The notes: a model not told the origin generated them from the letters alone. Positions 19,921 through 50,427 are shown, counted from the stretch's first letter. The stretch is 64,000 nt of DNA from an uncultured Gammaproteobacteria bacterium (GCA_964588165.1 CAZPMS010000001.1:27303-91302); one strand, 5' to 3'. Translations and numbers: made by a program.

Positions 19921-19923
19921 AAA

Positions 19924-24949: not shown

Positions 24950-24962
24950 TTTATTAAATAAC

Positions 24963-25454: not shown

Positions 25455-25499
25455 AATTTTTAGAAATTAATTATTCTTTATATATAAATTATTTTTTTA

Positions 25500-25545
25500 G
25501 GCCGTATGAGATATTCTCTGCGGCTTTTTTTCTTTTAAATAACAA
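25500..25545 (+). repeat. Copy 2 of the 44-bp terminator-containing direct repeat (ggccgtatgagatattctctgcggcTTTTTTTcttttaaataac)
   Basis: ~90% identical to 24919-24962; lies immediately upstream of the start of the 163-aa gene. Confidence 0.55.
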
Positions 25546-25552
25546 TTTTTTA

Positions 25553-25600
25553 GTAGCTACGCTGACTGACGCTGACTTGCCTGCCTACCGGCAGGCACGG
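25553..25600. repeat. GC-rich palindromic element (family C head AGCTACGCTGAC plus CCTGCC..GGCAGG hairpin, family D core)
   Basis: agctacgctgactgacgctgacttgcctgcctaccggcaggcacggac, immediately 3' of the ALDH stop. Confidence 0.5.
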
Positions 25601-25602
25601 AC

Positions 25603-29699: not shown

Positions 29700-30800
29700 T
29701 TACCAATATAGTGCTTCTTTAGGGATTACCGTATCTTCCTCAATATCTATTTTGGCTACCTTGCCTAAAAGTTCGTTTATTTTATAAGGCTTAAGGCCGC
29801 TGCCTGGGCTTTTAACCGTCAGCATCTCTACAGATATAGGCGTACCGGTAGAAATCCTGGTTTTGGCCACAATACTTTTTGAATGTTTTTCTCTGGCCCT
29901 TACTTCTGATTGCCTGATTTTTTTATGGGGATCACCCAAAGCTTTTTCCAACTTCCTAATGTGGTAAACCAAATCTTTAAGTTCATTCATATCCAAGCTG
30001 ACTGTGGTGTGGTCTGGGCCTGGCAGATTTTTATCAACTGTTATATGTCTTTCCACTGTACAGGCTCCCATGGCAGCCGACATAATGGTTGGCATTATGC
30101 CCTTTTCATGTCCGGAGTAACCGATTGGCAATGGCCCGTATCTTTCTATTAAGGTTTTTAGATTATTTAAATGGACATCTCCAAGCGGTGTTGGATAAGT
30201 AGAAACGCAGTGGTTAATTATCAGTTGATTATTATGCTTTAAAATTAAATCAATTGCCCTATCCATTTCTTCTATGGTAGACATACCTACAGAAAGAAAG
30301 ATTGGTTTTTTTAGCTTAGCAATCTTTTCCAAAAGATCATGGTAAGTTACATCAAAAGAAGAAATTTTATAACCATCCACTCCAAGTTCTTCTAAAAAAT
30401 CCACGCTTTTTAAATCAAATGGTGTTACAAAAAAGAAAGCTCCCAGTTTTTCTGTATGTTTTTTAAGTTCCCTAAATTCATCCATGGTAAGTTCTTGGAA
30501 CTCACGGTATTCACCATATGTTTTGCCAAATTCTAAAGTTTTGGTCTGTTTTTTATCCCGCATTTCCTTTATAAAAACATCGTCTACAGACCTTTTTTGG
30601 AATTTAACTGCATCAGCACCTGCAGCCACAGCCTCTGTAATATGCCTTTTGGCCAGTTCCACATCGCCATTATGGTTGCAGCCAACTTCGGCCACCACAA
30701 AAACCGGTTTATTTTTGCCCACCAATCGGTTGCCCACTGCTACTTGCTCGGGTATATCCAAGTGCTCAAATGGCCTCTTGGAAGCTGAATCAATTGTCAT
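29700..30800 (-). CDS. NeuB-family nonulosonic acid synthase, full length with C-terminal SAF domain
   Basis: VFVVAEVGCNHNGDVELAKR...GADAVKFQKRS; C-terminal antifreeze-like SAF fold (VAKIDIEEDTVIPKEAL). Confidence 0.85.
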   Translation of the reverse strand: MTIDSASKRPFEHLDIPEQVAVGNRLVGKNKPVFVVAEVGCNHNGDVELAKRHITEAVAAGADAVKFQKRSVDDVFIKEMRDKKQTKTLEFGKTYGEYREFQELTMDEFRELKKHTEKLGAFFFVTPFDLKSVDFLEELGVDGYKISSFDVTYHDLLEKIAKLKKPIFLSVGMSTIEEMDRAIDLILKHNNQLIINHCVSTYPTPLGDVHLNNLKTLIERYGPLPIGYSGHEKGIMPTIMSAAMGACTVERHITVDKNLPGPDHTTVSLDMNELKDLVYHIRKLEKALGDPHKKIRQSEVRAREKHSKSIVAKTRISTGTPISVEMLTVKSPGSGLKPYKINELLGKVAKIDIEEDTVIPKEALYW

Positions 30801-30906
30801 ATTTCTTTAATAATTACTACTTAAAAAGCATGGGTAGCAATGCCCTGCGCTTTCCATTTTTTATAATAGAAATGGTGCAGGGTAAATATTACTATAACAA
30901 AAAACC

Positions 30907-31569
30907 TCAAATTTCGTCAAGTTTAAACTCATTTATGGAATTTAACCTTAAATTTGCCAGTTTTTCCATAATTTCTACATTTTTTTTAGGATATGGAATA
31001 GCTACTGTAAACATACCTGCTGCTTTAGCTGCCTTTACTCCTTTTAGGTCATTTTCAAAAACCAAGCAATCTTTAGGATTAACTTCCAATCTTTTGGCCG
31101 CTAATAAAAAAACTTCAGGATCTGGTTTATTATTTTTTCCCTCATGAGTTGAAGTCAAGACTGAAAAATATTCACTCCAGCCAAAATAGTTAACCACAAA
31201 CTCAATTATTTTTAAATTCATTCCTGAAGCAATGGCCATAGGCAATTCATTTTTTTTGAAAATCTTAAGTATTTCATTTACTCCAGGTAAAACTTCTAAT
31301 TCATTTTTATATATCTCAAACATCTTTTGCATCCTTAAATCCATAATCTGTTCAGGTGATTCCTCTTTATTAAAAATCTCCTTGAGTTTAGACATAATCT
31401 CTTTTAGTTGAATTATTTCCGATTTCATCTTCAACCAGATTGGCTGCCACTCTTGCCAGGCAGCCTCACCTAAATATTCAGTAAAAAATACCTGGTCAAT
31501 TTCTGGCCAAAGTTTTTCTGAATCCACTAAAAGATTGTCCATGTCAAAAATTACTGCTTGATATTTCAT
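30907..31569 (-). CDS. HAD-IA family phosphatase (candidate NulO-9-phosphate/sugar phosphatase)
   Basis: VIFDMDNLLVDSE (DxD motif I), 220 aa. Confidence 0.8.
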   Translation of the reverse strand: MKYQAVIFDMDNLLVDSEKLWPEIDQVFFTEYLGEAAWQEWQPIWLKMKSEIIQLKEIMSKLKEIFNKEESPEQIMDLRMQKMFEIYKNELEVLPGVNEILKIFKKNELPMAIASGMNLKIIEFVVNYFGWSEYFSVLTSTHEGKNNKPDPEVFLLAAKRLEVNPKDCLVFENDLKGVKAAKAAGMFTVAIPYPKKNVEIMEKLANLRLNSINEFKLDEI

Positions 31570-31572
31570 ATA

Positions 31573-32289
31573 TTATTTTTCTAATCTTTTTTTAAGAAGT
31601 TGCTCTGCTATTAAAAAATCTTTTTCATCATCAATATCAACCGCATCTAGCTTATCAATCTTATGAAATAGAATCTTGTTACCTGATAATGATTTATCTT
31701 TCATCAATGTATCATACTTTACGGCAATTACATCTGTATGTGAAAGAGCCTCGGGAAACGATTGCCTTGGTTGATTTGCAATATCAGGTCCGGTAATTTC
31801 TTCCGGCATAAATGGCTTTAATTGTTTGCCCTCAACTCTCCATAATTTATATGGATGCTTAGATGCTTCAATTACAGTTCTGCATGAAGTGGCTTCTTTA
31901 TCTCCAGCTAATAGCTCTATGCACTTATCAATGGATTCTGTTTTACATAATGCAGAAGTAGCTGGTAAACGCAATATAATATCCGGCTTCCAATTTTCAT
32001 TCTCCTCAAACCATTTAACTGCATGGGTTAAGTATTTAATATCCAGTGCTTTATCATCAGATATTTCTTTAGGCCTTAAAAAGGGCGCTTCAGCTCCGTA
32101 CTTTTTGGCAATATCAGCATATTCTTGTGAATCAGTAGAAATAATTAGCTTATCAATTAACTTGGAAGCTTTAGCTGCCTCGGTTATCCAAGCTAAAAGA
32201 GGTTTACCGAGCAGCAGTTTAATATTTTTATGAGGCAGCGCTTTAGAACCTGACCTGGCTCCAATAACTGCTAAAACATTTAAATTCAT
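31573..32289 (-). CDS. Second nonulosonate/acylneuraminate cytidylyltransferase (CTP_transf_3)
   Basis: LAVIGARSGSKALPHKNIKLLLGKPLLAW. Confidence 0.85.
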   Translation of the reverse strand: MNLNVLAVIGARSGSKALPHKNIKLLLGKPLLAWITEAAKASKLIDKLIISTDSQEYADIAKKYGAEAPFLRPKEISDDKALDIKYLTHAVKWFEENENWKPDIILRLPATSALCKTESIDKCIELLAGDKEATSCRTVIEASKHPYKLWRVEGKQLKPFMPEEITGPDIANQPRQSFPEALSHTDVIAVKYDTLMKDKSLSGNKILFHKIDKLDAVDIDDEKDFLIAEQLLKKRLEK

Positions 32290-32292
32290 AAT

Positions 32293-33669
32293 CTAAAGAT
32301 TCTTAATTATATAATTATACATTCTCTTGCCTGTTTGGCCGTCTGAATGCTTGCACTGCTCCCTAACTATCCTTTGCCTGCCTTCAGCGTCTTGCTGAGG
32401 GTTTTTTAAATACATATTTATTATCTCACCCAGTTCTTGTTTATTATTGGCCGGCCGTTCACCACCTGTGGCCACAATTTGACGGTAATGAGTGTAATCT
32501 CTTAAGCGTTTGATTGAAAACAAATATTTTTTCTTGGCTTTGCCGTCGTAATTAATATTGATGACCGGCTTATCAAAAATACTGGCTTCAATAACTATAG
32601 TACAGTAGTTGGTAATCAATAAATCCAAATGGTAAAACAAGTTGGTGAAAAAATCATCATCTTCCTGCTTTATTTCCCAGCTTTGTTCTTCACCCACAAA
32701 CTCGCAAGGTTGGTTATAAATGAATCCGTAATTTTTAATTTTGCCAATAAGCTCATCAGACAAGGCATATTTAGGATAAGTTCTGATTAAAAACTTATGT
32801 GGCACTTCAATTTTATTTTCTTTTTTTAACTCATTCATGTCGCCGATTACATCGTCATAATTTGGTGAAGTATTTGTAGAAGACAAGCCATAAACAACCA
32901 ATTTCTTATCCAGCGGACAACCAATCTGCTTAAAAAATTCCTCTTTAGAAACTATAGCCTCTTTTTTAAAATACCTGTCATATTTTATTACGCCAACCAC
33001 TTCAATATCTTTCTTTTTAATATCGCCCATACTTATAGACTCTTGTTTTACAAAATCGGTAGTAACAATATATTTATCTGATTTATGGAAGATAAACAGC
33101 TTAGAATTCAAATTATCCCAGCTTAAAATATAGGAAACAGTCTTAATTCCTTTTTCTCTGGCCCTTTTTAACATTCTAAATTCATCAAACCTTAAAAGGT
33201 TAACAGCATAAATTAAATCAGGCTGGTATTTGGCAAATAAATTATCATAATGTGAACCATCCGCAAACTTTTTAAACAAAATTCTTATAAATTCCCGCCA
33301 AGGCCGAAGTTTAGCTAAATACCAAAAAAGTCTTTTAGCTAAAAATGTTATAAGCTTCCTTAAAAAACTCATATTTTTTACATCAGTAAAAAACCTTTGA
33401 TGATGAATCTTGATAGTTCTAGTGGAAATACCGCTTTTGCCCATAAAATAAACTAAAGCTTCTGGCTTAGTTTTAGCTTTTTTTTCTGCAACCGCTTCTA
33501 CGATAACATTATCCGACTCATAACTTTCTTTATAGTAGTCAACCTTACCCCTGGGGACCAACAAAATAACTTTTAAGTCATTATTCTTTTTTAAGGAATC
33601 AAAAAATTCCGACCGCAGCAGATCTCTGGCCTGGAAGCCTGTTTCTATGGTAATAAATATTGTTTTCAT
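32293..33669 (-). CDS. Uncharacterised GT-B-like protein, paralog 3 of 3
   Basis: 458 aa; MKTIFITIETGFQARDL..., KYQPDLIY, SWDNL, DIEVVGVIKYDRYF blocks shared with paralogs 1 and 2. Confidence 0.5.
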   Translation of the reverse strand: MKTIFITIETGFQARDLLRSEFFDSLKKNNDLKVILLVPRGKVDYYKESYESDNVIVEAVAEKKAKTKPEALVYFMGKSGISTRTIKIHHQRFFTDVKNMSFLRKLITFLAKRLFWYLAKLRPWREFIRILFKKFADGSHYDNLFAKYQPDLIYAVNLLRFDEFRMLKRAREKGIKTVSYILSWDNLNSKLFIFHKSDKYIVTTDFVKQESISMGDIKKKDIEVVGVIKYDRYFKKEAIVSKEEFFKQIGCPLDKKLVVYGLSSTNTSPNYDDVIGDMNELKKENKIEVPHKFLIRTYPKYALSDELIGKIKNYGFIYNQPCEFVGEEQSWEIKQEDDDFFTNLFYHLDLLITNYCTIVIEASIFDKPVININYDGKAKKKYLFSIKRLRDYTHYRQIVATGGERPANNKQELGEIINMYLKNPQQDAEGRQRIVREQCKHSDGQTGKRMYNYIIKNL

Positions 33670-35054
33670 AACTTGTTGGATATATTTGATAATTTGTTTT
33701 TAGATTTAGTTAAAATATTTTTTATTATTTCTAAATCAAATTGAGTAAATTTAAACATACCTGTAAATGCGTGCCATTTTAAACCTAATTTTTTTATAGT
33801 GCTAAAATAAATTATCAATCCCACTAAAAAATTGCTTATTATAAATTCAAAAGCCATACCGTAGATCCCAAATATTGGCAAAAGTAAAGAATTTAAAATA
33901 ATCACTAAAAATATTTTTAAAACAGGAAAGTAGGCTAGAATTTTCTGCTGTCTTAGGCTGAACAGTATAGAATTAGCAAACCTGTTTACCCCACCAAAGC
34001 TAAGAGGCACCACGCTTAAAATCATAAAAATTGGTATAGATGCCCAATACTTAGGGAAGGCAATATAAACAAAAATTGGCATCAAAATAAGACCGGCTAA
34101 ATAAGTTAAAACCAAAATTATGGTTGAATATTTGCTACCGTAAATAAAAGCTCTTTTAAGGCGACTTCTATCTTTAATAATTTCCGGCAGTAATTGGTTA
34201 ACAACTTTTTTAATCGGAATCAATCCATCTAAATGGGTATAAAGGTTCTTGCCAAAATTATAAATAGCCACTGCTTCGGTACTGATAAAAAATTTAATCA
34301 GCCAGGGCTTAATATTTTTTTGGATTTTTGAGACAACCCCGGCAAAAATATTCCACTTGCCATGAGCTTTTATAATCTTCCATAATTCCAGATTTTTTAA
34401 ATCTATTTTAAAACCGCTAAACCAGCACATTAGATCTTTCCGGTTGTAAAAAAAGATAAAAATAATAGTTAAAAAATTAGCCACCACCATGGTAAAAATA
34501 ATCTTGGCTATACCTGGATCAAAATAAAATACTATCGTAAGAAGTATCACAATCTTTATTAGTTCTTTCAAAAAAGTAAAACTACCCATTTGGAAAAACT
34601 TTTTATTAACTTTAAAATTAATTCTTAAAAAATTATCCAAACCCCTAAATAAAACTAAAAACGCTCCTAACTTAATAAATAAGCTGATTGAATTATAGCC
34701 ATATTGGCTGGCAATCATCTCGGCGCCAAAAAATAAAACAGCAAAAGCAATAAAACCCAGTATAATCTTAGTTATAAAATATTCTTGAAAAATTTTTTTG
34801 GCCTTAGATAGTTCCCCTTTCCCCCGCTCTATCATAATATCGGTAGCCACTAACTGATCCATGCTTTCAAATAAAATTGAGCTGGCAAAACCGATTATTG
34901 CCAAAACTAAAACATATAGTCCATATTCATAAATTGTTAAAAGGTATAAAACAATAAATGAATTAACAATTCCTATTACCTGGCTCAAGGTTCCCCAAGA
35001 ACCCAAAAAAACTGTGCCTTTTAATGCTTCGGCTGTTAATGATTTTTGGCTCAT
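33666..35054 (-). CDS. Wzx-like polysaccharide/oligosaccharide flippase (MOP superfamily)
   Basis: 462 aa, ~12 TM, no soluble domain; overlaps neighbours by 4 nt. Confidence 0.65.
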   Translation of the reverse strand: MSQKSLTAEALKGTVFLGSWGTLSQVIGIVNSFIVLYLLTIYEYGLYVLVLAIIGFASSILFESMDQLVATDIMIERGKGELSKAKKIFQEYFITKIILGFIAFAVLFFGAEMIASQYGYNSISLFIKLGAFLVLFRGLDNFLRINFKVNKKFFQMGSFTFLKELIKIVILLTIVFYFDPGIAKIIFTMVVANFLTIIFIFFYNRKDLMCWFSGFKIDLKNLELWKIIKAHGKWNIFAGVVSKIQKNIKPWLIKFFISTEAVAIYNFGKNLYTHLDGLIPIKKVVNQLLPEIIKDRSRLKRAFIYGSKYSTIILVLTYLAGLILMPIFVYIAFPKYWASIPIFMILSVVPLSFGGVNRFANSILFSLRQQKILAYFPVLKIFLVIILNSLLLPIFGIYGMAFEFIISNFLVGLIIYFSTIKKLGLKWHAFTGMFKFTQFDLEIIKNILTKSKNKLSNISNKL

Positions 35055-36232
35055 AAAATTGATTTATAGATATCAACCAATTTGCTTGCGGACTTTTCCC
35101 AGGAAAAAACCTGGCCTCTGGCTAATCCTTTACTTGTTAATTGTTCTTTTAATTCCTGATTTTGTAAAACCTGATCAATGCCGGCAGCAATATCACTTAA
35201 ATCCAAAGGGTCAACATATTTTACTGCATCACCGGCCACTTCTTTATAAACCGGAATATCAGATACCACTTGGGCAACCCCAACTTTCATCGCTTCAACC
35301 AATGGCAGCCCAAAACCTTCATTTAAACTTAAATTTACGGCCAGGTCTGCCGCACCATAAATTGCTGGCATATCTTCTGCCTCTATATCTTTAGTAATTA
35401 TTACATCATTTTCAAGATTATTTTCTTTAATAATATTATCCACTTTTTCTGAATAATCTTTTAAATGCCTTCCGCCAACCAATATTAAATATTGATTGAT
35501 TTTATATTCCCTTTTTAATTTGGCATAAGCTTTAACTAAACGGTGGACATTTTTATGCGGATCAAAACGGCCTACCTGGACAATATAAGGTTGTTTAATA
35601 TTATATTTCTTTTTTAAAACATCCCGGCATCCCGGCATCCCGGCATCCTCGATTGGCCTAAAATTATCTTTGCAACTATTATAAAAATAATTAATTTTAT
35701 CTGATTTAATATTATAGTATTTTGCGATCTGCTTTTTGCCGGTTTCTGAAACAGCTAAAAATATATCCACAAAAGGTTTGGCCAAATATTTAATATGGAA
35801 ATTCCACCAACTGCCGGCTTTCCTAAAATGCTTAGGGGTGAACTTATCCGGCGCACCATGCAAGGTAACAACAAACTTTTTTATCTTGCCCCGCCACTTA
35901 GCAATTAAAAATCCCGGGTACAGATTGTGTCTGGGCACCATAAAAATATCAAACTTTTCTTTGGTGGTTATAAAAAACCATAGCCAGGAAAAAGTCCCTG
36001 ATAGCATTGGTAGCTTAAAGGTTTTAATGGTAATATTTTTTGCCAGCTTACAAACAGGGTGGTGGCATTTGCCCTCCCTGTGCACCAAAGTTAAATCAAT
36101 CTGATCAGCATAGTTATTTACCAGCTGCTCAATCAGTTTTTGGGAATAAGTGGCTTGGCCTTTGGTTTTCCTGTCTATGTCGTCTGTAAACCAAGCAACT
36201 TTAATTTTGTTATTATTTTTCATTTGATTCAT
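35051..36232 (-). CDS. GT4 family glycosyltransferase
   Basis: EGFGLPLVEAM motif. The ORF-track start (36319) reads 29 extra codons through a GC-rich repeat; the start was moved to M30 (MNQMKNNNKIKVAWF). Confidence 0.8.
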   Translation of the reverse strand: MNQMKNNNKIKVAWFTDDIDRKTKGQATYSQKLIEQLVNNYADQIDLTLVHREGKCHHPVCKLAKNITIKTFKLPMLSGTFSWLWFFITTKEKFDIFMVPRHNLYPGFLIAKWRGKIKKFVVTLHGAPDKFTPKHFRKAGSWWNFHIKYLAKPFVDIFLAVSETGKKQIAKYYNIKSDKINYFYNSCKDNFRPIEDAGMPGCRDVLKKKYNIKQPYIVQVGRFDPHKNVHRLVKAYAKLKREYKINQYLILVGGRHLKDYSEKVDNIIKENNLENDVIITKDIEAEDMPAIYGAADLAVNLSLNEGFGLPLVEAMKVGVAQVVSDIPVYKEVAGDAVKYVDPLDLSDIAAGIDQVLQNQELKEQLTSKGLARGQVFSWEKSASKLVDIYKSIL

Positions 36233-36343
36233 AGTCCGTGAAAGTCTGTGTCTGACCGCGTCGTCTGTGCTTGACTGCGAAAGTCCGTACAGACATACAC
36301 GGGCAAATACAGACGACACTGACCTACGCGGACCTGCACAGAC
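36233..36343. repeat. GC-rich palindromic element, family B (GTCGGTGTCGTCTGTAC.../...CGGACGACACGGAC), inverted orientation copy
   Basis: Shares >20-nt blocks (gaaagtccgt, acagacgacac, gacctgcac) with the reverse complement of the copies at 51367-51491 and 52596-52735. Confidence 0.6.
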
Positions 36344-36652
36344 TTATTTATTACCCTCTCCAATATTCTTATTCTTCTTTATAAAATATAAATTCCTGAT
36401 ATAAATTAAAATTGCTAAAAGTTGGCCCAAGAAGAAAACCGGATCACGCCTTACTATAGCGTAAACAAAAATTATTAAAGCGCCAATAATGCTTAAGTAC
36501 CAAAAATAAATTGGTATCACGCTCATTTTTGCTTTTTCTGAATACCACCACTGCACTACAAACCTTAAAAAGAAAATAAATTGCCCTAAAAAGCCGACAA
36601 TTAGCCAGTAGTCGTAGTTTATTGATTCGAGATAACTAATTATATTATCCAT
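36344..36652 (-). CDS. LAB_N (lipid-A-biosynthesis N-terminal domain) small membrane protein, usual partner of polyprenol-P-sugar GT2 enzymes
   Basis: WLIVGFLGQFIFFLRFVVQWWYSEKAKMSVIPIYFWYLSIIGALI...RRDPVFFLGQ signature. Confidence 0.75.
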   Translation of the reverse strand: MDNIISYLESINYDYWLIVGFLGQFIFFLRFVVQWWYSEKAKMSVIPIYFWYLSIIGALIIFVYAIVRRDPVFFLGQLLAILIYIRNLYFIKKNKNIGEGNK

Positions 36653-36706
36653 GTCCTAAATTAATTAATAATTAATGATTAAAAAATAATGATCAATCAT
36701 TAATTT

Positions 36707-38425
36707 TCAATTTTTATTTATTAATCTGTATACCTCTACAAAAGGCCCATACCCTTGTATATTGTTTAAAGTATCATCAACTTCTCTAGGTGAATTAGGA
36801 ATGTCGTAAATTACTTCCAAGCTGTCTGACGGATAAAATTCTTGAATCAATACTTTATCAAATTTTTCTAAAGCACTATAGCGTTCCCACTTGCTGGGAA
36901 TCTTTAAATAATCTTTCTGCCAATATGAAACAATATAATAATCGGCCCTAACTCCCTCTACAAATAATTTATCAAAATCCAAATGGTGCCAATCATAAAT
37001 AAAGTAATTGGGTTTAGGATAATTTTCATCAGTCAATTGGCTTAGATATTTATCTTTAGTGTTTACCCAAAAGCTGTTGTTGTATCTTAAAAATTCAATG
37101 CTTTTTTTATCCTTTACTAGGGCGTGGATTATATCTTCTTCATCAATAATAACTCTGCTACCTGCCGGAATATTTTCCCCAATCCAATCAAGGGTTTGGA
37201 TTCTGGTATCGGTAACTGTAAATTTTTGCAAAAACCTGGCATCTGTATAAAATGCCGGAATTAATAAAATAACGGCTAAAATATAAGTTAGGCCTTTTTT
37301 TTCTTTAATTTTAAATTTTAAAATAACTTGATATAAGCCGTAGGCGGCAAATAAAAGCAAGATCGGTATTAGTGGAATGTTAAATCTATGGAAAGCTTTG
37401 GAAAAGAAGAAAAACAAGGAAAACAAATAAATTATAGGAAAGCCGATAAATAGCCATTTTTCAAACCAATTCCAAATTTTATTTTTAAAGATGAAATAAA
37501 AACCTGCTACTGCAAATAACAATAAATATTTTAAATCATACAATAAAGAGACCAGAATGGTTTTAATGTTCTCAACTATATCAGAGCTTCTTTCCACATT
37601 GGAAATTTGCTCAAAATTAAATTCAACCCCAAAATTACTCAAGACTATGGCTATCACCCTGCCAAATTGGCGCAGGATTGAATGAGTATTGCCTAAAATA
37701 AAAAAGGTGACGATTACCAATAAAATTACTAAGCTAATAATTATTTTTTTATTAAAAAACTGGTTAAAGTTTTTCGGCCTAAGATAATATGCATGAGCCA
37801 GCAGTAGCCAAGGCACCAATAAAATTGCCAAAAGGCCGGTGCCAAAACCTAGGCCCATAAAAACGGCAGACCAATAATAATATTTTTTACTGCCGGTTTT
37901 TGCCAGTTGCCATAATAAATAAACGGCCACTAAAATAAAAAAGCCTAAGGGTATCCAAAACCTGCCGGATACTGAACCATGCAAATGCAAAAAATCAAAA
38001 GCTAACCATAATGAGGCAACAACGCCAATTAATGGATTAAACAATTTTTTACCAAACTTATATAAAAACCAAACAGTTAAAGTTCCAAATAAAATTGAAA
38101 TTATCCGAGTGAAAATTAATAGTTGTTCGCTGTTTAATAAAACAAACTCTTTATAACCGGTAAGACCGGCAAATTGGCCAAAGACCATACCAACTAAACC
38201 GTAGATGACAATAAATGGCATTAATAAATATGAGGTTAAAGGCGGTAGATAGCTAAATGCCAGCCACAATGTTTTTTGGTCCATCATTTTTAAAGCATTG
38301 GCCAATTGGATGTACTCATCGCCAAACAGCCTTAAAGGCAAGCCGTAATTAATTGGCAGCAACCTTATTAACAGAGCTGCCAACAAAATTCCTATTAAGA
38401 CCCAAGTTGTTTTTGCAAATTTCAT
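36707..38425 (-). CDS. GT-C fold glycosyltransferase, GT39/GT83 (PMT / ArnT-like) family
   Basis: 572 aa polytopic; first periplasmic loop carries GDEY (DE motif), as in ArnT/Pmt. Confidence 0.75.
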   Translation of the reverse strand: MKFAKTTWVLIGILLAALLIRLLPINYGLPLRLFGDEYIQLANALKMMDQKTLWLAFSYLPPLTSYLLMPFIVIYGLVGMVFGQFAGLTGYKEFVLLNSEQLLIFTRIISILFGTLTVWFLYKFGKKLFNPLIGVVASLWLAFDFLHLHGSVSGRFWIPLGFFILVAVYLLWQLAKTGSKKYYYWSAVFMGLGFGTGLLAILLVPWLLLAHAYYLRPKNFNQFFNKKIIISLVILLVIVTFFILGNTHSILRQFGRVIAIVLSNFGVEFNFEQISNVERSSDIVENIKTILVSLLYDLKYLLLFAVAGFYFIFKNKIWNWFEKWLFIGFPIIYLFSLFFFFSKAFHRFNIPLIPILLLFAAYGLYQVILKFKIKEKKGLTYILAVILLIPAFYTDARFLQKFTVTDTRIQTLDWIGENIPAGSRVIIDEEDIIHALVKDKKSIEFLRYNNSFWVNTKDKYLSQLTDENYPKPNYFIYDWHHLDFDKLFVEGVRADYYIVSYWQKDYLKIPSKWERYSALEKFDKVLIQEFYPSDSLEVIYDIPNSPREVDDTLNNIQGYGPFVEVYRLINKN

Positions 38426-39357
38426 TATTTAAGAGTTTTTTTAATTCTAAAATAATCTTTTTTACCGGAATGTTTGCTTACAATAATTTCACCTAAAATG
38501 CCAATGGAAAATAACTGCACGCCCACAATAACCAAAAGCAAACCAACAAAGAATAAATATGGGTGCTGGTTAATTAAAATGCCATAAATAAATTTAGCAA
38601 GATATAATCCTACAATAACTAAAAAGCCTAAAATTGAACTGAACATTCCTAAATTTCCAAAAAAATGTGAGGGCTTTTGGGAAAATCTCAAGAGAACCCA
38701 CAAGGTAGTAATATCAAAAAAACCTTTAATCAAACGTCCAGCTCCGTATTTGGATTTTCCAAATTTGCGGGCGTGATGCTTAACGCCAATTTCTTCCACA
38801 CTAAAGCCTTTAGTATACAACAAAGCCGGAATAAACCGATACAAACCGCCATAAAGGTTTAATGATTGGGCTGCCTCTTTGGTATAAGCTTTAAAACCAC
38901 AATTAAAATCATGGACTTTTAACTTGGTAATTTTAGAGACCATAAAATTAAATATTTTAGAAGGGAAGGTTTTAGAAATTGGATCATGCCTATGCACTTT
39001 CCAGCCGGTTACGCAGTCGGCGCCTGCCTCTATTTTTTCTATAAACCTAGAGATCTCCTCGGGCTCATCCTGCAAATCACCGTCCATTGTAATAATTATA
39101 TCTCCTTCCGCCTCGGCAAAGCCTGCCATTAAAGCGGCGGACTTTTCAAAATTTCTAGTAAACTGAATTACCTTTGTATGTTCAATATCCTGTTTATGAA
39201 CATTTTCCAATTCAAAAATTGTTTTATCATTACTGCCGTCATCAATATAAATAATCTCATACTTCCTATTAAGTGAAGATAAAACCGATTTTAATTTTTG
39301 CTGCAGAGGATTAATGCTTTCCTCTTCATTATAAACCGGGATAACTATTGAAATCAT
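38425..39357 (-). CDS. GT2 polyprenol-phosphate sugar synthase (ArnC/Ppm1/GtrB-like) with two C-terminal TM helices
   Basis: ISIVIPVYNEE...YIDDGSNDKT...TMDGDLQDEPEEI; C-terminal TM pair. Confidence 0.85.
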   Translation of the reverse strand: MISIVIPVYNEEESINPLQQKLKSVLSSLNRKYEIIYIDDGSNDKTIFELENVHKQDIEHTKVIQFTRNFEKSAALMAGFAEAEGDIIITMDGDLQDEPEEISRFIEKIEAGADCVTGWKVHRHDPISKTFPSKIFNFMVSKITKLKVHDFNCGFKAYTKEAAQSLNLYGGLYRFIPALLYTKGFSVEEIGVKHHARKFGKSKYGAGRLIKGFFDITTLWVLLRFSQKPSHFFGNLGMFSSILGFLVIVGLYLAKFIYGILINQHPYLFFVGLLLVIVGVQLFSIGILGEIIVSKHSGKKDYFRIKKTLK

Positions 39358-39379: not shown

Positions 39380-39490
39380 TAGAATAACACTGATGGTTCG
39401 CGGATGGCGCGCAGATAACTCACAGATATCAGCGAGTTATCCGTGATTTATCAGTGGGTATTCAGTGAATCTCCGTGATTTATCCGCGTT
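39380..39490. repeat. GC-containing repeated element with internal direct and inverted repeats (TCCGTGATTTATC x2)
   Basis: gataactcacagatatcagcgagttatccgtgatttatcag...ctccgtgatttatccgcg; overlaps the stop of the GT4 gene. Confidence 0.4.
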
Positions 39491-40607
39491 TCTTCTGATA
39501 AATATTTAGAATAGTCTCTTTTAATATTTTAACATTTTTTTGGATAGAAAAGTCTTTTACTCTGGCCAAAGCTCCTTTTGAAATTTTACTTCTTAAATTA
39601 GAATCATTAATAAGTAAGTTCACTTTTTCGGCTATAGCCACTGGATCTTTAACCGGCACAATTAAACCATCGGTTCCATCATTTAAAACTTCTTTAGCTC
39701 CAGAAACATCAGAAATAACCATTGGCTTGCCTGCTGCCATAGCTTCTAACATTACCAAAGAGAGTCCCTCCCAAAGCGATGGCATTACAAAAATATCAGT
39801 TACAGAAAAAAGTTTGTTTATTGGTAAGATGCCCAGCATTTTTATTTTATCGGCTATATTTAAATCAGCTGCCAGTTGTTCCAGTTCTGACCGTAGTTTG
39901 CCTTCACCGCCGATTAAAAAATAAATTTCTTTATCTGAATTTTTATCAATTATTTTTTTAGCAGCTTCTATAAAATAAGTTTGGCCTTTTTGCTCCACTA
40001 AACTGCCAGCGTTGGATACAACCATGGCCGCCTCTGGAATACCCAAATCTTTTTTGAATACTGATTTTTCTTGTGTTGATAATTCTTTAAAATCCAATGG
40101 CACAGCATTGTAAATGAGCTTGAATTTACTTTTGGGAATATTTTCTTGTTTTGAAGTAAATTCCAAAACTTCTTTTGAGACCGGAATTATGGCATCAGTA
40201 AAGTATGAAAGTATTTTATCAGCCAGGATCTGGACTTTAGATTTATTTATATAAACGTTCTGCTCATAAGAACAAATAACCGGAACGTGGCTAAGCTTAG
40301 CCAAAATTCTTAAAGAAAAATTTGTTAAGAATAAATAACTTATAACTGCATCAAATTTTTCTTTATCCAAAAACTTTTTAACTTTAGGCATGGCCGCTAA
40401 ATCTAAAACGTTTTTATAACTAAACTGAATGGTTTTATCTGCTGAAATTTGCAGCTGATCCCTAAAAGTTTTTTTACCTTTTTCAGTCACTGTTGTTAAA
40501 ACCCAAACATCAAAATTTGGATCTTTATTAAGTTCATTAACTTGGTTTACAAAAACTCTTTCGGCTCCACCTATTACTAAACTGTTTATGGCAAATAAAA
40601 TCTTCAT
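39480..40607 (-). CDS. GT4 family glycosyltransferase
   Basis: EGLSLVMLEAMAAGKP. Start set at M17 (MKILFAINS), which abuts the upstream gene's stop. Confidence 0.8.
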   Translation of the reverse strand: MKILFAINSLVIGGAERVFVNQVNELNKDPNFDVWVLTTVTEKGKKTFRDQLQISADKTIQFSYKNVLDLAAMPKVKKFLDKEKFDAVISYLFLTNFSLRILAKLSHVPVICSYEQNVYINKSKVQILADKILSYFTDAIIPVSKEVLEFTSKQENIPKSKFKLIYNAVPLDFKELSTQEKSVFKKDLGIPEAAMVVSNAGSLVEQKGQTYFIEAAKKIIDKNSDKEIYFLIGGEGKLRSELEQLAADLNIADKIKMLGILPINKLFSVTDIFVMPSLWEGLSLVMLEAMAAGKPMVISDVSGAKEVLNDGTDGLIVPVKDPVAIAEKVNLLINDSNLRSKISKGALARVKDFSIQKNVKILKETILNIYQKKRG

Positions 40608-41815
40608 ATTTTTTGATTGATGAAATCCATAATTTTTATTGCCCGTTTTTCCCAAGTATAATTTTTTACTTTACTAAAAGCGTTTTGGGCTAGTTGATTT
40701 TGCCTATTGCTATCTGATACTAATCTGGATATCTGATTAGTTAAATCTTGATAATCGTCTGTTTTAAAAAATTCAATTTCTTCTTGATTAAAAACTTCTT
40801 TAATGCTACTTACATCTGGAGCAATTATTGGCCGCTGGCTGGCCGCATAATCAAACAGCTTCATTGGGCTTAAAGAATATTGGCTTAAAACTTCACTGCT
40901 ATACGGTAAAACAAAAATGTCTGCTGCTGAATAATACTCCTTAACTTTTGAAAATTTAATATGAGGTAAAACCAAAGCATCTTTATCTAAACTATTTTTG
41001 GCCAGCACAAAATTAATTCGTTTAATATCCTCCTCCTTAATTCCTGCAATCATTAAAAACAAATTTGAATTTAAATCATGGGCTTGTTTAAAGGCTACAA
41101 TGAAATCGGTTAAGCTTTTTTCTTGATTAAATATTTTACTCTTGCCCACGTATGAAACTATGACTTTATCAAAGGGCAAGTTATGCTTTTTTTTCATTTC
41201 TTCCTGATTAGGCAAATTGGCAAAATCAGTTATAGAAACGGCACTGGGTGCCACCCTGATCTTTTCTTCTTTAAGATTGAACTTTTTAATGAAATCTTCT
41301 TTTGATTGGCTATTGATTGTAATAATGCCTTTTACTTTTTTTATTGTTTGGCTCCAAGATTTATCAGCCAGCTGATGAAGTTCTACAAAAACATTTTTAT
41401 GAAATTTTGAAACAACTTTGGCAATTAATTTGCTTCTGGTATAAATGATTTTATCTTGATTTAAAATGGTTAAAAAAATCAATTCCAATAAATAAATCGG
41501 CATTCTAATTAAGTAAGCCAGCTTGCCTAAGCCGATTTGATGGAAAAACTGGATATCAAAACAAAATAGTTTTTTTATTTTAAACTTCTCCCCTATCTGA
41601 TAATAACTGAATGGATCTCCATTGATTTGACTTTCCTTGCCGGCATACCTTATTGGTAAAACCAAAGTGAGCTTAACCCCTGCTTTGGTTAAGCCTTCGG
41701 CCATTTTTATAATGGCTAATCCATGGGCTTTTTCTGTGGGAATCCGGGCATCAGCCAGATATAATATTTTCATAAATTTCTCGCAAATTATACAATTTTT
41801 GTTATTTTTTAGCAA
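40604..41815 (-). CDS. GT4 family glycosyltransferase
   Basis: GT-B Rossmann halves; the start may instead be M15 (41773). Confidence 0.75.
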   Translation of the reverse strand: MLKNNKNCIICEKFMKILYLADARIPTEKAHGLAIIKMAEGLTKAGVKLTLVLPIRYAGKESQINGDPFSYYQIGEKFKIKKLFCFDIQFFHQIGLGKLAYLIRMPIYLLELIFLTILNQDKIIYTRSKLIAKVVSKFHKNVFVELHQLADKSWSQTIKKVKGIITINSQSKEDFIKKFNLKEEKIRVAPSAVSITDFANLPNQEEMKKKHNLPFDKVIVSYVGKSKIFNQEKSLTDFIVAFKQAHDLNSNLFLMIAGIKEEDIKRINFVLAKNSLDKDALVLPHIKFSKVKEYYSAADIFVLPYSSEVLSQYSLSPMKLFDYAASQRPIIAPDVSSIKEVFNQEEIEFFKTDDYQDLTNQISRLVSDSNRQNQLAQNAFSKVKNYTWEKRAIKIMDFINQKI

Positions 41816-43778: not shown

Positions 43779-44582
43779 ATGTCACATCTAGACCAGTTGG
43801 AAAATAAAAGTATCTACATTATCAGAGAGGCTTGGTTTCAATATAAAAACCTGGCTCTTTTGTGGTCTGTTGGCAAAGATTCCACCACCCTTTTGTGGCT
43901 GGTAAGAAAAGCTTTCTTAGGCAAAATTCCCTTTAAAGTCATTCATATTGATACCACTTATAAATTCCCAGAAATGTATGCCTTTAGGGATAAGTATGCC
44001 CGGGAATGGAATTTAGATTTGCTGGTTGAAAAAAACCAAACTGCTATTGCCAGCGGTATTGGCTATAAAACTCACGATGCTTTTACTTGTTGCCATGAAT
44101 TAAAAACTGTAGCCCTGCAGCAAGCCATTATTAAACATGATTTAAAAGCTTTACTGGTTGGCATCAGGCGGGATGAGCACGGCATTAGGGCCAAAGAAAG
44201 ATATTTTTCTCCCCGGACCATTGATTTTAAATGGAACGCTAAAGATCAACCACCCGAGTTATGGGATCAATACAAATCTAAAGTTGGTAAAGAAACCCAC
44301 ATTAGGGTCCATCCCCTTTTGCATTGGACAGAAGAAGATATCTGGAACTATATTAAGCGTGAAAATATTCCTACCAATGAACTTTATTTTGCTAAAGACG
44401 GTAAACGTTACAGAAGCTTAGGTTGTATGCCAATAACTAAACCAATCAAATCAACTGCTGATACTGTAGATAAAATTATTGAAGAATTAAAAACCTCTCA
44501 AGATGATGAAAGGGCTGGCCGTGCTCAGGATAAGGAAGAAGCAAATACTATGGAAAAATTAAGAGCGCTTGGATATATGTAG
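43779..44582 (+). CDS. cysD: Sulfate adenylyltransferase subunit 2
   Basis: PAPS-reductase-like PP-loop SVGKDSTT; 267 aa; C-terminus ends LRALGYM. Confidence 0.9.
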   Translation: MSHLDQLENKSIYIIREAWFQYKNLALLWSVGKDSTTLLWLVRKAFLGKIPFKVIHIDTTYKFPEMYAFRDKYAREWNLDLLVEKNQTAIASGIGYKTHDAFTCCHELKTVALQQAIIKHDLKALLVGIRRDEHGIRAKERYFSPRTIDFKWNAKDQPPELWDQYKSKVGKETHIRVHPLLHWTEEDIWNYIKRENIPTNELYFAKDGKRYRSLGCMPITKPIKSTADTVDKIIEELKTSQDDERAGRAQDKEEANTMEKLRALGYM

Positions 44583-44646
44583 CACCCCACGACCCGCTCC
44601 CTACGGTCGCCTGCTCGCGGGGACCCCGCCTTTTTTGGAAAATTTT

Positions 44647-45867
44647 ATGGATAAAACTAACAATCAACTAAAATTTATAATCGTTGGTCATGTGGACCAC
44701 GGCAAGTCAACTTTAATTGGCCGGCTGTTATTAGATACTAACTCAATTTCTCAAGCTAAAATTGATGAAGTAACAGAAATTTGTGAAGCACTAGGCAAGC
44801 CTTTTAAACCTGCTTTTTTAATGGACCACTTAACTGAAGAACGTCAAAAAAACATAACCATTGATACAGCCCAAACCTTTTTCAAAACAGATAAACAGGA
44901 TTACGTGATAATTGATGCGCCAGGCCACAAAGAATTTTTAAAAAATATGATTACTGGTGCCACTTTGGCTGAAGCAGCCATTTTAATTGTTGATGCTGAT
45001 GAAGGAGTTAAAGAACAAACTAAACGTCACGCTTACATGTTAAGTTTGCTGGGAGTTGATCAATTGATTGTAGTGGTAAATAAAATGGATAAAATTGATT
45101 TCCAAGAAGATAAGTTTAATAAAGCTAAAGACAACCTACAAAATCATTTAAAAAAAGTGAACTTATCAGCTAATTATTTAATCCCTATTTCAAGTAAACA
45201 AGGTGATAACATTGTCCATAAATCTGATAAATTCAATTGGTACAGCGGACCGACAGTTTTAGAAGCCCTGGATTCATTTAAAAATAAACTTGCTGAAAAT
45301 TTACCGCTTCGCTTGCCTGTTCAGGATAAATATGATGATATTTTGCTGGGCCAAATAGCCAGTGGTGTTTTAAATAAAAATGACGAGGTTATTATATTTC
45401 CTTCAGAACAAAAAACTTCAATTAAAGAAATTAAAAAATGGCAACAGACTTTGGATAAAGCTGAAGCAGGAGATAATATTGGAATTACTTTAACTGATAA
45501 AATTGATGTCAAACGAGGTGATATTATCTGCGATACTGACAATCTTCCTAAAGTCACTAATGAATTCAAAGCTACTATTTTCTGGATGAGCAAAGATTCA
45601 TTAAAAACTGATGAAGCTTTTAGCTTAAAACTGGCTACTCAAGAAACTTCAGTCCAAATTAAAAAAATCCATAAGCTTATGGATTCTTCTACTTTAGAAC
45701 AAATTGACCGAACAAGTGAGATCAAAGAAACTGAAGTTGCGGAAGTGGATATTAAAACTGATAAAAAAATTGTTATTGAAGATTTTAATTATATTCCTGA
45801 ATTAGGACGATTGGTAATTGTAAAAAATGAAGATATTTCCGGCGGCGGGATTATCAATCTAAACTAA
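44647..45867 (+). CDS. cysN: Sulfate adenylyltransferase subunit 1 (GTPase), no fused APS-kinase domain
   Basis: GHVDHGKSTLIGRLL (G1), DAPGHKEF (G3), NKMD (G4). Start moved to M27 (MDKTNNQ), past a GC-rich spacer. Confidence 0.9.
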   Translation: MDKTNNQLKFIIVGHVDHGKSTLIGRLLLDTNSISQAKIDEVTEICEALGKPFKPAFLMDHLTEERQKNITIDTAQTFFKTDKQDYVIIDAPGHKEFLKNMITGATLAEAAILIVDADEGVKEQTKRHAYMLSLLGVDQLIVVVNKMDKIDFQEDKFNKAKDNLQNHLKKVNLSANYLIPISSKQGDNIVHKSDKFNWYSGPTVLEALDSFKNKLAENLPLRLPVQDKYDDILLGQIASGVLNKNDEVIIFPSEQKTSIKEIKKWQQTLDKAEAGDNIGITLTDKIDVKRGDIICDTDNLPKVTNEFKATIFWMSKDSLKTDEAFSLKLATQETSVQIKKIHKLMDSSTLEQIDRTSEIKETEVAEVDIKTDKKIVIEDFNYIPELGRLVIVKNEDISGGGIINLN

Positions 45868-47666: not shown

Positions 47667-48224
47667 TTAATAATTTTTATCGGTTTCCCATTTAATAGGA
47701 TTATTTATAATATACTTTTGAATTTCTGATAATGATTTTTCATTTCTAATTATATGGTCGTAATATCTGGCTTGCCAAAAGAAATATTCAAAACCTTTTT
47801 TATTGCATTCCTTCTTAACCGCGCCTTTATAATGATTGATTATTGATGGCAATGAATTATTTATTAATGAACCAAATCTATTTTCATGAATTGTACGAAC
47901 GCGCCGCGCCTCCTCTGTACGAACGCGCCGTGGCGCGTTCCTACGGCGTGGCGCATTTTTATTATCAATTATTACAATTCCGTGAATATGATTTGGCATA
48001 ATTATGAATCTATCCAACCTAACATTCGGATATCTTTTAGAAATTCTTTTCCAATTTCTTTTGGCAATTTTACCTATTGCTGATAATCTCATTCTACCTT
48101 CTATAACCTCGCCAAAATAATGGCTCCCATCCTTTATACAAATTGTAATAAAATAATAGCCATCGCTGGAATAATCATATCCAGGCAGCCTAAATTGCTT
48201 TTTTATTTTAAATTGAAAAACCAC
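47667..48224 (-). CDS. REP-associated tyrosine transposase (RAYT, IS200/IS605 Y1 HUH family, COG1943) carrying an in-frame REP insertion
   Basis: RLPGYDYSSDGYYFITICIKDG, HUH motif PNHIHGIV, C-terminal FFWQARYYDHIIRNE...YIINNPIKW. A 22-aa segment NAPRRRNAPRRVRTEEARRVRT is encoded by a REP doublet. Confidence 0.75.
   Translation of the reverse strand: MVFQFKIKKQFRLPGYDYSSDGYYFITICIKDGSHYFGEVIEGRMRLSAIGKIAKRNWKRISKRYPNVRLDRFIIMPNHIHGIVIIDNKNAPRRRNAPRRVRTEEARRVRTIHENRFGSLINNSLPSIINHYKGAVKKECNKKGFEYFFWQARYYDHIIRNEKSLSEIQKYIINNPIKWETDKNY
47891..47956. repeat. 66-bp family-A REP doublet lying inside, and in frame with, the RAYT ORF
   Basis: ttgtacgaacgcgccgcgcctcctctgtacgaacgcgccgtggcgcgttcctacggcgtggcgcat; 66 nt = 22 codons. 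Confidence 0.6.
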
Positions 48225-48262: not shown

Positions 48263-48383
48263 TTGTACGAACGCGCCTTTATAATGATTTATTATTTGTA
48301 ATGATGAATTTTAATAATGGACGCATTTATTTATATCAATTGTACGAACGCGCCGCGGCACGTTCGTACGTTTATGGCGCGTT
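48263..48383. repeat. Family-A REP elements upstream of the RAYT plus a degenerate copy of the RAYT internal segment between them
   Basis: ttgtacgaacgcgcc at 48263-48277; AT-rich ~60 nt resembling RAYT nt 47824-47890; tgtacgaacgcgccgcggcacgttcgtacg (9-bp perfect palindrome) at 48341-48370; overlaps the kinase gene's stop. Confidence 0.6.
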
Positions 48384-48882
48384 ATTTTAAATAAAGCCAA
48401 GTTTCTAATTTTTTAGTAGTTTCCTCAACTGATAATCCTTCCGTTTCTATAACAATTCCTTCATCAAATTTATTTACTTTATTAAAAACAGCCTCCGCTG
48501 CATCTTTACCATATGAGTTTTCTCTTTGGCTATCTCTTTTTATACAAACGTCCAATGGAGCTTTAAGAGTAAAAATATATCGGTTACCGCCTAAATTTTC
48601 TTTAAAGTTTTCAATCTGCTGGCGGTGATAAAAACAACCGTCAATTATTATACTCTTGCCTTGCTCTAATAAACTTTTCATTTTAGGCAATACCAGTTCA
48701 TTGGCTTTAATATAATTTTCTATTGGAACGTAGCCATCTTCAGGGCCATGGTCTAAATCATTCTCGTGCATAATTTCATCAATAGAAAAATATTCAGCCG
48801 ATAATCTTTCAGCCAACTTTTTAGCAATGGTTGTTTTGCCAACCCCCAGCGCCCCTCTGATTATACAATAAACTGAATTCAT
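48382..48882 (-). CDS. Small P-loop kinase/ATPase (AAA_33-like nucleotide or small-molecule kinase)
   Basis: CIIRGALGVGKTTIAKKL Walker A; 166 aa; not a canonical CysC (no LDGDNVR). Confidence 0.6.
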   Translation of the reverse strand: MNSVYCIIRGALGVGKTTIAKKLAERLSAEYFSIDEIMHENDLDHGPEDGYVPIENYIKANELVLPKMKSLLEQGKSIIIDGCFYHRQQIENFKENLGGNRYIFTLKAPLDVCIKRDSQRENSYGKDAAEAVFNKVNKFDEGIVIETEGLSVEETTKKLETWLYLK

Positions 48883-48892
48883 ATTATTTTAA

Positions 48893-50302: not shown

Positions 50303-50427
50303 ATTTTCTTGGTCTTTCCTCTCTAACGTCACCCTGAACAAAGTGAAGGGTCCCATTAATCTGGCAAAGTTGGTGGAATAATGGGATTCTTCGCTAAAGC
50401 TCAGAATGACATAATTCAGGAAAGGCT

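Follow-up and report, generated by a model that had tools for sequence, protein, structure and literature searches.

A GT2, GT-C and LAB_N gene trio in a bacterial glycan island: a candidate system for the decoration of exported glycans

Introduction

The locus described here raises the question of what a polyprenyl-phosphate sugar synthase of the GT2 family, a glycosyltransferase of the GT-C fold and a small membrane protein of the LAB_N family do together, and on which acceptor they place their sugar. The three genes adjoin each other in a stretch of 64,000 nucleotides that is deposited as DNA of an uncultured Gammaproteobacteria bacterium (GCA_964588165.1, CAZPMS010000001.1:27303-91302), and the whole of this stretch is called the window below. 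The original prediction, made from the sequence alone, had read the trio as a polyprenol-phosphate-sugar system that serves either protein O-glycosylation, with a huge Ser/Thr-rich surface protein as a plausible acceptor, or periplasmic glycan decoration. The analysis reported here favors the latter: the acceptor is most likely an exported glycan that is modified after its export, and it is fairly probable that the three genes encode a three-component system for glycosylation outside the cytoplasm that decorates a Wzx-exported glycopolymer and uses LAB_N to flip the donor or to render it usable.

Sequence comparison points to a bacterium of the Patescibacteria, or candidate phyla radiation (CPR), as the host. 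The relatives of the GT-C enzyme in reference genomes all belong to Patescibacteria (Saccharibacteria, Harrisonbacteria, Sungbacteria and Giovannonibacteria), and the MetK of the window is 76-84% identical to proteins of Komeilibacteria, Kuenenbacteria and Falkowbacteria. The trio proteins were also found, identical, on metagenome contigs of up to 254 kb. The suggestion that this lineage is cell-wall-reduced found no support in the data.

Arrangement and Conservation of the Trio

Three open reading frames (ORFs) with matches to PF00535, PF13231 and PF07578 lie on the minus strand within 36344-39357, exactly where the original prediction had placed a contiguous and co-oriented triad (Table 1). 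Its title had listed them as GT2, LAB_N and GT-C, an order that has to be corrected to GT2, GT-C and LAB_N. The stop codon of the GT2 gene and the start codon of the GT-C gene overlap by one base (TGATG), so that the two are translationally coupled, and 54 bases separate the GT-C gene from that of LAB_N. The trio is present again in the homologous contigs L001-L005, with GT-C identities of 56-100%, and in the more distant loci L018 and L023, a recurrence which argues that the arrangement is not due to chance. In L005, the contig with the 56% identical GT-C, the genes follow each other as GT4, GT2, GT-C, LAB_N, GT4, Wzx, TagF-like, CMP-transferase, HAD and NeuB. In the window, the GT4, Wzx and TagF-like genes downstream of the trio are presumed to make and export the acceptor glycan.

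Some otherwise near-identical metagenome contigs differ from the window within this cluster. In L001 and L003, the GT2 gene (window 39107-39135) has lost 18 or 19 bp and carries an altered block of 10 nt; these changes remove the conserved AALMAGF segment and, in L003, split the gene, and in L002 an upstream GT4 gene (window 39934) carries a 59-bp insertion. Such differences may mean that surface-glycan genes are inactivated or vary from strain to strain, or they may be assembly errors. Several related modules also have a class-I S-adenosylmethionine (SAM) methyltransferase gene, encoding about 200-240 amino acids (aa), between GT2 and LAB_N or GT-C; such a gene is absent from the window's own trio. 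Its presence hints at a methylated lipid-linked or transferred sugar in those systems that bear it.

The GT2 and GT-C Enzymes

The GT2 protein has the architecture of a polyprenyl-phosphate monosaccharide synthase, and this activity is predicted on the strength of its homology. It aligns over its full length to the solved ArnC structure 9hwj (6.5e-45, residues 2-293 versus 10-296), also to the GtrB homologue sll0501 (2e-32) and, more weakly, to the Dol-P-Man (dolichol-phosphate-mannose) synthase of Pyrococcus. The motifs DDGS and DGDLQDEPEEI fall within the ArnC alignment, and a pair of C-terminal transmembrane (TM) helices is predicted at residues 236-254 and 268-286, in agreement with the ArnC-like enzyme with a C-terminal TM pair that had been described. 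The scores against the NCBIfam models ArnC (182.7 bits, equivalog cutoff 529) and PgfS (163.5 bits, cutoff 500) are far below these cutoffs, so that the sugar specificity is not assignable; judged by its sequence, the protein is the orthologue of no named enzyme.

The GT-C protein was modeled with AlphaFold2 (AF2) on the basis of 12 homologues, which gave a helical membrane core followed by an extracytoplasmic alpha/beta domain from about residue 405 (predicted local distance difference test, pLDDT, 84.8; predicted TM-score, pTM, 0.86). When this model was compared with the PDB using Foldseek, every significant match was a GT-C glycosyltransferase, with query TM-scores of 0.43-0.57 and 10-14% identity overall, and none was close. 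The best matches by E-value were STT3/AglB/PglB (about 5e-9 to 4e-5; TM-scores 0.31-0.51, identity 12-14%), while ALG12/ALG9 reached a target TM-score of up to 0.67 and ArnT (3.6e-5, TM-score about 0.5) and Pmt4 (4e-4) followed. PMT_2 is the only Pfam model that the window GT-C passes, and it is matched by all 12 family members; the PMT model PF02366 is not reached, no MIR domain was found by Pfam, and at E <= 0.01 no NCBIfam family was matched, ArnT included. The classification as GT39, GT83 or GT66 by hidden Markov model, which the original prediction had recommended, could therefore be carried only as far as PMT_2, with fold matches spread over STT3, ALG9/12, ArnT and Pmt4 at TM-scores of about 0.5. 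The enzyme belongs to the broad PMT_2 family only and is no orthologue of ArnT or STT3, and probably none of PMT.

A GT66 oligosaccharyltransferase, which would agree with the best Foldseek E-values, was considered and rejected, as the TM-scores are low and no WWD motif was found in the GT-C sequence; furthermore, the adjoining GT2 implies a monophosphate-linked monosaccharide as the donor, whereas GT66 enzymes use a diphosphate-linked oligosaccharide.

The GDEY loop motif that had been pointed out is indeed present at residues 35-38, directly after TM1. Its D36 is the same in all 12 family members, which go down to 21% identity, and its E37 in at least 90% of them; Asp36-Glu37 is presumed from this to form the catalytic acidic pair that GT-C enzymes have. 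The combination of a GtrB/ArnC-type synthase with a GT-C protein carrying an extracytoplasmic Asp-Glu motif bears out the polyprenol-phosphate-sugar logic of the original prediction.

The family is a large one, with 3349 cluster representatives (50% identity) at E <= 1e-30 in an exhaustive profile search; a word-indexed protein search had given 16 matches and understated its size. Nearly all of the 150 best profile matches listed are full length, at about 570 aa. The family includes fusions of GT2 to GT-C (P0273, 807 aa) and of GT4 to GT-C (P0287, 882 aa), and in P0347 a C-terminal TPR array replaces the alpha/beta domain behind the GT-C membrane core. These three could be true Rosetta-stone fusions or gene-calling artefacts.

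The LAB_N Protein

The third protein matches PF07578 with 104.9 bits (cutoff 26.7) over all positions of the model (1-71 of 71), and LAB_N, not the SemiSWEET family MtN3_slv (PF03083), is its only Pfam assignment, though its predicted fold is that of a SemiSWEET. The AF2 monomer model consists of three helices, and the best 21 matches in a fold search of the PDB were all SemiSWEET or SWEET proteins, the best twelve having target-normalised TM-scores (TMt) of 0.68-0.79 and a root-mean-square deviation of about 2-3 A. As standalone proteins of about 90-105 aa, LAB_N members are present in Proteobacteria, Planctomycetota and Patescibacteria, and their conservation is high: 19 residues are invariant in 36 sequences of 46-83% identity, among them R30, Q34, E39, D70, R86 and N87, most of these six falling within the predicted helices or at their ends. 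LAB_N has been grouped within the PQ-loop/SWEET superfamily (PMC3281891). In the same superfamily, CLPTM1L scrambles GlcN-PI (glucosaminyl-phosphatidylinositol), and MPDU1 is required for the use of Dol-P-Man and Dol-P-Glc (its glucose counterpart) by a mechanism that is unexplained (PMC9169118). A functional study of LAB_N itself was not found in the literature that was searched.

The neighborhood of LAB_N genes was sampled in 80 metagenomic loci, 39 of which had enough flanking sequence to be judged. A GtrB-like GT2 gene was located within 1.5 kb in 25 of the 39 loci, a gene for a GT-C-like polytopic protein in 29, and both in 22; after dereplication at 80% identity, these numbers became 12, 10 and 9 of 15. 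The partners are usually immediate neighbors on the same strand, and in the commonest layout the gene for a GT2 of about 246 aa without TM helices overlaps that of LAB_N, which is followed after 7 bases by the gene for a GT-C of about 506 aa. In the four contexts from named taxa, a GT2 gene is always beside LAB_N, and in two of them GT-C is beside it as well. One of these two, L018, is a Paceibacteria-type trio; the other, L017 (a Phycisphaerae metagenome-assembled genome, 2014-6351), has the order GT2, YdjC-type deacetylase, LAB_N and PMT_2 GT-C, a layout similar to that of the Lgm/Flm loci. L016 and L019 have GT2 and LAB_N without GT-C. Judged by this gene context, LAB_N is probably not a sugar transporter. 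In GT-C relatives that are without LAB_N, a gene of the LPG_synthase_TM family (PF03706) abuts the GT-C gene, with an ArnC-like GT2 gene beside it. The PF03706 family takes in the flippase region of MprF, and the exchange of non-homologous PF03706 and LAB_N proteins in this position suggests that both serve to translocate lipids.

The fold, the gene linkage and this replacement make LAB_N a candidate polyprenyl-phosphate-sugar flippase or utilisation factor, which would be a half-size relative of the eukaryotic MPDU1. The more general proposal is that the widespread bacterial GT2/GT-C modules have in LAB_N their dedicated flippase for polyprenyl-phosphate monosaccharides, or a factor that presents the donor, and that LAB_N proteins are half-size homologues of MPDU1; it is put forward tentatively, as an idea whose chances are somewhat short of even.

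Proposed Mechanism

In the proposed mechanism, the TM-anchored GT2 would first use a nucleotide sugar to load a single sugar onto polyprenyl phosphate, presumably of the undecaprenyl type, at the cytoplasmic face of the membrane. A SemiSWEET-like dimer of LAB_N would then flip the lipid-linked sugar to the outer face, or render the donor usable, and would thereby stand in for the GtrA, ArnE/F or Wzx-like protein of known systems. Finally, as its fold and motif suggest, the GT-C enzyme would transfer the sugar outside the membrane by means of Asp36-Glu37 and its C-terminal outside domain. From the gene context, the acceptor would be a glycopolymer or repeat unit for which the GT4, nonulosonic-acid and TagF-like genes around the trio are responsible and which the adjoining Wzx exports, and the trio would add a side-chain sugar to it after export, similar to the glucosylation of O-antigen by Gtr systems, to GacI/J/K/L and to the teichoic-acid glycosylation by CsbB/GtcA/YfhO.

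The decoration of a glycan is favored over the O-glycosylation of a protein by the embedding of the trio between GT4 genes and Wzx, a placement that is conserved, by the gene order of L005, by the fusions, by the distance of the surface protein and by the neighbors in other genomes. In 12 related GT-C/LAB_N loci, the neighbors were in every case glycan genes (GT4, epimerase, methyltransferase, AsnB, TagF-like, Wzx); neither a relative of the surface protein nor an S/T-rich ORF was found within about 8 kb, and the maximum S+T fraction among plausible genes was 0.14. The periplasmic glycan decoration of the original prediction fits the gene context. A recurrence of the triad beside S-layer genes in relatives, for which it had proposed to look, was not seen in these 12 loci.

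Several findings weigh against this mechanism. With regard to LAB_N, the confidence of the monomer model is moderate (pLDDT 68), the best 5 profile matches, although all of them SemiSWEETs, are marginal (E 0.04-0.6), the linkage to GT2 is slightly tighter than that to GT-C, the GT2 is without TM helices in many LAB_N loci, and two other proteins of the window, a GtrA and an EamA, could flip the donor. As to the acceptor, the nearest sequence relatives of the GT-C with solved structures are protein O-mannosyltransferases, as its family profile matched only yeast Pmt1 (8.8e-9) and Pmt4 (5e-4) among the PDB sequences, through the TM region, and the TMEM260-like model is touched by nine of the 12 family members. 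This similarity to PMT-type enzymes, together with a precedent in streptococci (see below), keeps a protein acceptor in play, and no sequence feature pinpoints the acceptor or the sugar of the trio.

Alternative Explanations

The chief alternative for LAB_N, conceivable if doubtful, is that it anchors the GT2 in the membrane or activates it, in the way that DPM2/DPM3 serve DPM1 or GacJ serves GacI, and that flipping is done by GtrA or EamA or proceeds unassisted. This would explain why GT2 adjoins LAB_N more often than GT-C does in the dereplicated loci, why the commonest layout has a TM-less GT2 whose gene overlaps that of LAB_N, and why there are loci such as L016 and L019; it would also agree with the chlamydial fusions of LAB_N with LpxB, a peripheral glycosyltransferase (NCBIfam PRK01021). 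The LgmD protein of Bordetella may be a LAB_N protein as well, in which case genetic data on a member of the family would be at hand. Its gene, lgmD, the fourth of an ArnC/ArnT-like locus, has been reported as non-essential for the modification (PMC4993483), which would then be in keeping with an accessory role of this kind. The GT2 of the window, however, has its own TM pair and needs no anchor, the predicted LAB_N fold is a transporter fold, the polar and charged residues that are invariant across phyla exceed what an anchor would need, and it is a PF03706 protein that replaces LAB_N in related loci.

Direct protein O-glycosylation, in which the GT-C would resemble the actinobacterial Pmt or the streptococcal PgtC2/PgfM1 and transfer single sugars from the lipid donor onto Ser/Thr residues of proteins that are secreted or exposed at the surface, for example the large surface-type protein or the subtilisin of the window, is considered unlikely. 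Besides the PMT_2 assignment and the matches to Pmt1, Pmt4 and the TMEM260-like model mentioned above, it can draw on the PMT model, which is touched by six of the 12 GT-C family members (best 4e-9), and on the loop-1 Asp-Glu, which is present as in PMTs. In streptococci, GT2 and GT-C pairs do glycosylate S/T-rich regions, but the enzymes are of the YfhO type and not PMT_2 (PMC12041528). A large acidic protein rich in T, A, S and N is encoded in the same island (T 11.4, A 10.8, S 9.6, N 9.5, G 9.4 and D 8.5%). Its ORF is where the original prediction had found a huge S/T-rich surface protein, and the subtilisin with FG-GAP repeats is there too; the S+T content is about 21%, spread evenly along the sequence, and no poly-Ser/Thr tracts were found. 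The link between this protein and the trio found no support: the two are 21.5 kb apart, with CysD/CysN on the opposite strand and an IS200-like fragment between them. The 12 related loci, the conserved placement between GT4 and Wzx and the failure of the window GT-C to reach PF02366 likewise argue against a protein acceptor.

That the trio modifies a membrane lipid or lipid-anchored polymer independently of the Wzx glycan (a polymer like lipoteichoic acid (LTA), a glycolipid or a lipid-linked cell-wall precursor), as ArnT modifies lipid A or CsbB/YfhO modify LTA, is quite improbable: the ArnT-like GT-C (about 570 aa, TM core and C-terminal outside domain), the best family match of the GT2 to ArnC, the Lgm/Flm-like lipid A modification-type locus L017 with its LAB_N gene and the three TagF-like genes of the island are in its favor, but the GT2 score is far below the ArnC cutoff, the TagF-like proteins match a glycosyltransferase model of NCBIfam, BFO_1060, if weakly (about 50 bits against a cutoff of 200), and not teichoic-acid polymerases, and ArnT itself was rejected because the GT-C matches no NCBIfam family, because the annotated ORFs of the window include no lipid A, Arn or Lpx genes and because the host appears to be a CPR bacterium, a group that is not known to make lipopolysaccharide (LPS). 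A firm assignment to ArnT accompanied by lipid A genes, which the original prediction had named as the counter-case, is thus not what the window holds.

The Glycan Island

As judged by its gene content, the window is a single glycan island of about 60 kb, with many GT4 genes, methyltransferases, AsnB and CysD/CysN in addition to the trio (Table 1). Two NeuB genes, two CMP-sugar synthetases, one UDP-GlcNAc 2-epimerase (GlcNAc, N-acetylglucosamine) and three TagF-like/BFO_1060-like transferases indicate that the product of the island is probably a glycan that contains one or two nonulosonic acids. No tRNAs and no Rfam RNAs were found in the window.

A second lipid-sugar module, composed of a DPM1/PpgS-like GT2 and a GtrA-family protein, is located directly downstream of the subtilisin/FG-GAP protein, a TPR protein and the Wzy_C-TPR protein (region 4705-10906), and no GT-C partner is adjacent to it. 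In an LPS-free bacterium, this Wzy_C-TPR protein may act either as a polymerase or as a PglL-like O-oligosaccharyltransferase; if PglL-like, it would qualify better than the trio for the glycosylation of proteins. With this second GtrA and GT2 module and a phosphoglycosyltransferase/Wzx/Wzy_C pathway in the same island, the proposal, also part of the original prediction, that the trio might be the main cell-surface glycosylation route found no support.

Other genes of the island touch on the chemistry of its product. Besides CysD/CysN, an AAA_33 kinase-like protein and a protein of the type I phosphodiesterase/alkaline-phosphatase superfamily are encoded inside it, and a Sulfotransfer_3 gene is present near the LAB_N trio of L018; the island glycan may be sulfated. 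Amid the sugar-biosynthesis genes are those for an aldehyde dehydrogenase and for a protein similar to transketolase (387 bits to a transketolase model, which is below cutoff), together with two ORFs without family match, one of 369 aa and one of 163 aa with 2 TM helices; this suggests a pathway for an unusual sugar side-group. An ORF of 185 aa between the two halves of the island has a marginal match (8e-05) to the C-terminal part of an IS200-like Y1 transposase and may be the remnant of a mobile element that marks their junction.

Table 1. Positions of the trio and of other features in the window, and of methyltransferase genes in related loci
Feature	Position	Strand	Remarks
GT2 polyprenyl-phosphate sugar synthase, GtrB/ArnC type	38425-39357	minus	310 aa; PF00535 (Glycos_transf_2) 8.8e-32
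DGD (DxD) metal/nucleotide-sugar motif of GT2	39076-39084	minus	D92-G93-D94 within MDGDLQDEPEEI; aligned to ArnC DADLQNPPEEI; coordinates from ORF start
GT-C fold glycosyltransferase	36707-38425	minus	572 aa; 11 predicted TM helices; PF13231 (PMT_2) 1.4e-10
GDEY motif of GT-C	38312-38323	minus	residues 35-38, first extracytoplasmic loop; read within LRLFGDEYIQLA
LAB_N protein, SemiSWEET-like	36344-36652	minus	102 aa; 3 TM helices; PF07578 2.4e-30
GT4, two, upstream	39480-40655, 40604-41815	minus	co-oriented, same cluster; PF00534/PF13692; kept upstream of trio in L001-L005
GT4, downstream	35051-36319	minus	co-oriented; Pfam and NCBIfam matches; block 32293-36319
Wzx/MOP flippase	33666-35054	minus	Pfam and NCBIfam matches
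TagF-like/BFO_1060-like transferase	32293-33669	minus	Pfam and NCBIfam matches
Second lipid-sugar module	4705-5904	minus	DPM1/PpgS-like GT2 (228 aa, no TM helix) and GtrA-family protein (153 aa, 5443-5904)
Subtilisin with FG-GAP repeats	5901-7955		secreted-type
Wzy_C-TPR protein	8624-10906	minus	760 aa; 12 TM helices
Initiating phosphoglycosyltransferase	11001-12371		above TIGR03025 cutoff
NeuB, CMP-sugar synthetase, 2-epimerase and TagF-like genes	13392-16064, 18544-21394, 29700-33669	minus	
Transketolase-like protein, aldehyde dehydrogenase, two ORFs without family match	21469-27090	minus	
CysD/CysN sulfate adenylyltransferase	43779-45867	plus	inside island, strand opposite to trio
AAA_33 kinase-like and type I phosphodiesterase/alkaline-phosphatase-superfamily proteins	regions 43779-45867, 48382-50356	plus, minus	
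IS200-like ORF	47667-48224	minus	185 aa
Large surface-type protein	60888-63938		1016 aa; frame runs past window end; N-terminus/signal peptide outside view
SAM methyltransferase genes	L011 5317-5934; L018 3375-3992; L019 3411-4001; L023 829-1503, 2752-3465		related loci

Comparison with Known Systems

The trio is of a known kind, that of the Gtr, Arn and Gac systems, and its new element is LAB_N as the third component. With the GtrA/GtrB/GtrC systems of Salmonella and Shigella phages, and their Klebsiella and Citrobacter variants, it shares a GtrB-like GT2 that makes a polyprenyl-phosphate-monosaccharide, a small membrane protein alongside, a GT-C transfer outside the membrane and the linkage to a Wzx-dependent glycan cluster (PMC11127046). 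It differs from them in that the small partner is LAB_N (PF07578, with 3 TM helices and the SemiSWEET fold) and not GtrA (PF04138) or an SMR/ArnE-like protein, that the GT-C is of the PMT_2 type with a C-terminal soluble domain, and that in a CPR host the acceptor cannot be an LPS O-antigen.

The decoration of a glycopolymer after export, by means of a lipid-linked monosaccharide, is also what CsbB/GtcA/YfhO do with lipoteichoic and wall teichoic acids and GacI/GacJ/GacK/GacL with the GlcNAc side chain of the group A carbohydrate, and there too the genes are inside the polymer cluster and a small accessory membrane protein is encoded beside the GT2 (PMC8035078, PMC7389260). The GT-Cs of these systems, however, are of the YfhO/GacL type, their flippases are GtcA (of the GtrA family) or the Wzx-like GacK, GacJ belongs to another family, and LAB_N is not part of them.

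In the Arn pathway (ArnC/ArnE-ArnF/ArnT), the enzymes are similar in that the GT2 resembles ArnC most, over its full length, and the GT-C is ArnT-like in size and domain order, and the layout of L017 is similar to the lipid A hexosamine pathways of Bordetella (LgmA-D) and Francisella (Flm, with naxD). The GT2 and GT-C proteins nevertheless reach no equivalog threshold, and ArnA, ArnB and ArnD were not found in the window. With Ppm1/Pmt O-mannosylation and the eukaryotic PMT/TMEM260 enzymes (GT39 and relatives), the trio has in common the polyprenol-phosphate-sugar donor, the loop-1 Asp-Glu, the similarity to PMT_2 and Pmt1 as the best PDB sequence match, but the window GT-C is without PF02366 or MIR, and its context is a polysaccharide cluster and not one of secreted-protein genes. 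LAB_N, finally, shares its predicted three-helix fold with the SemiSWEET/PQ-loop superfamily, including MPDU1 and CLPTM1L, and differs in being a separate Pfam family with invariant residues of its own.

Significance

Taken alone, the trio is one further module for extracytoplasmic sugar decoration, which helps to annotate CPR envelopes and is not surprising. The wider value of the locus lies in LAB_N, a family whose name derives from the chlamydial LpxB and which is linked, across phyla, to lipid-sugar synthases and GT-C enzymes. How polyprenyl-phosphate sugars are flipped or handed over is unresolved both in bacteria, where the activities of GtrA and ArnE/F have mostly been inferred, and in eukaryotes, where MPDU1 is concerned. 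If LAB_N does prove to be a flippase or donor-presenting factor, a problem that is decades old, namely by what route Dol-P-Man and Dol-P-Glc come to face the lumen, and with it the role of MPDU1, would become approachable through a bacterial protein of about 100 residues with defined operon partners.

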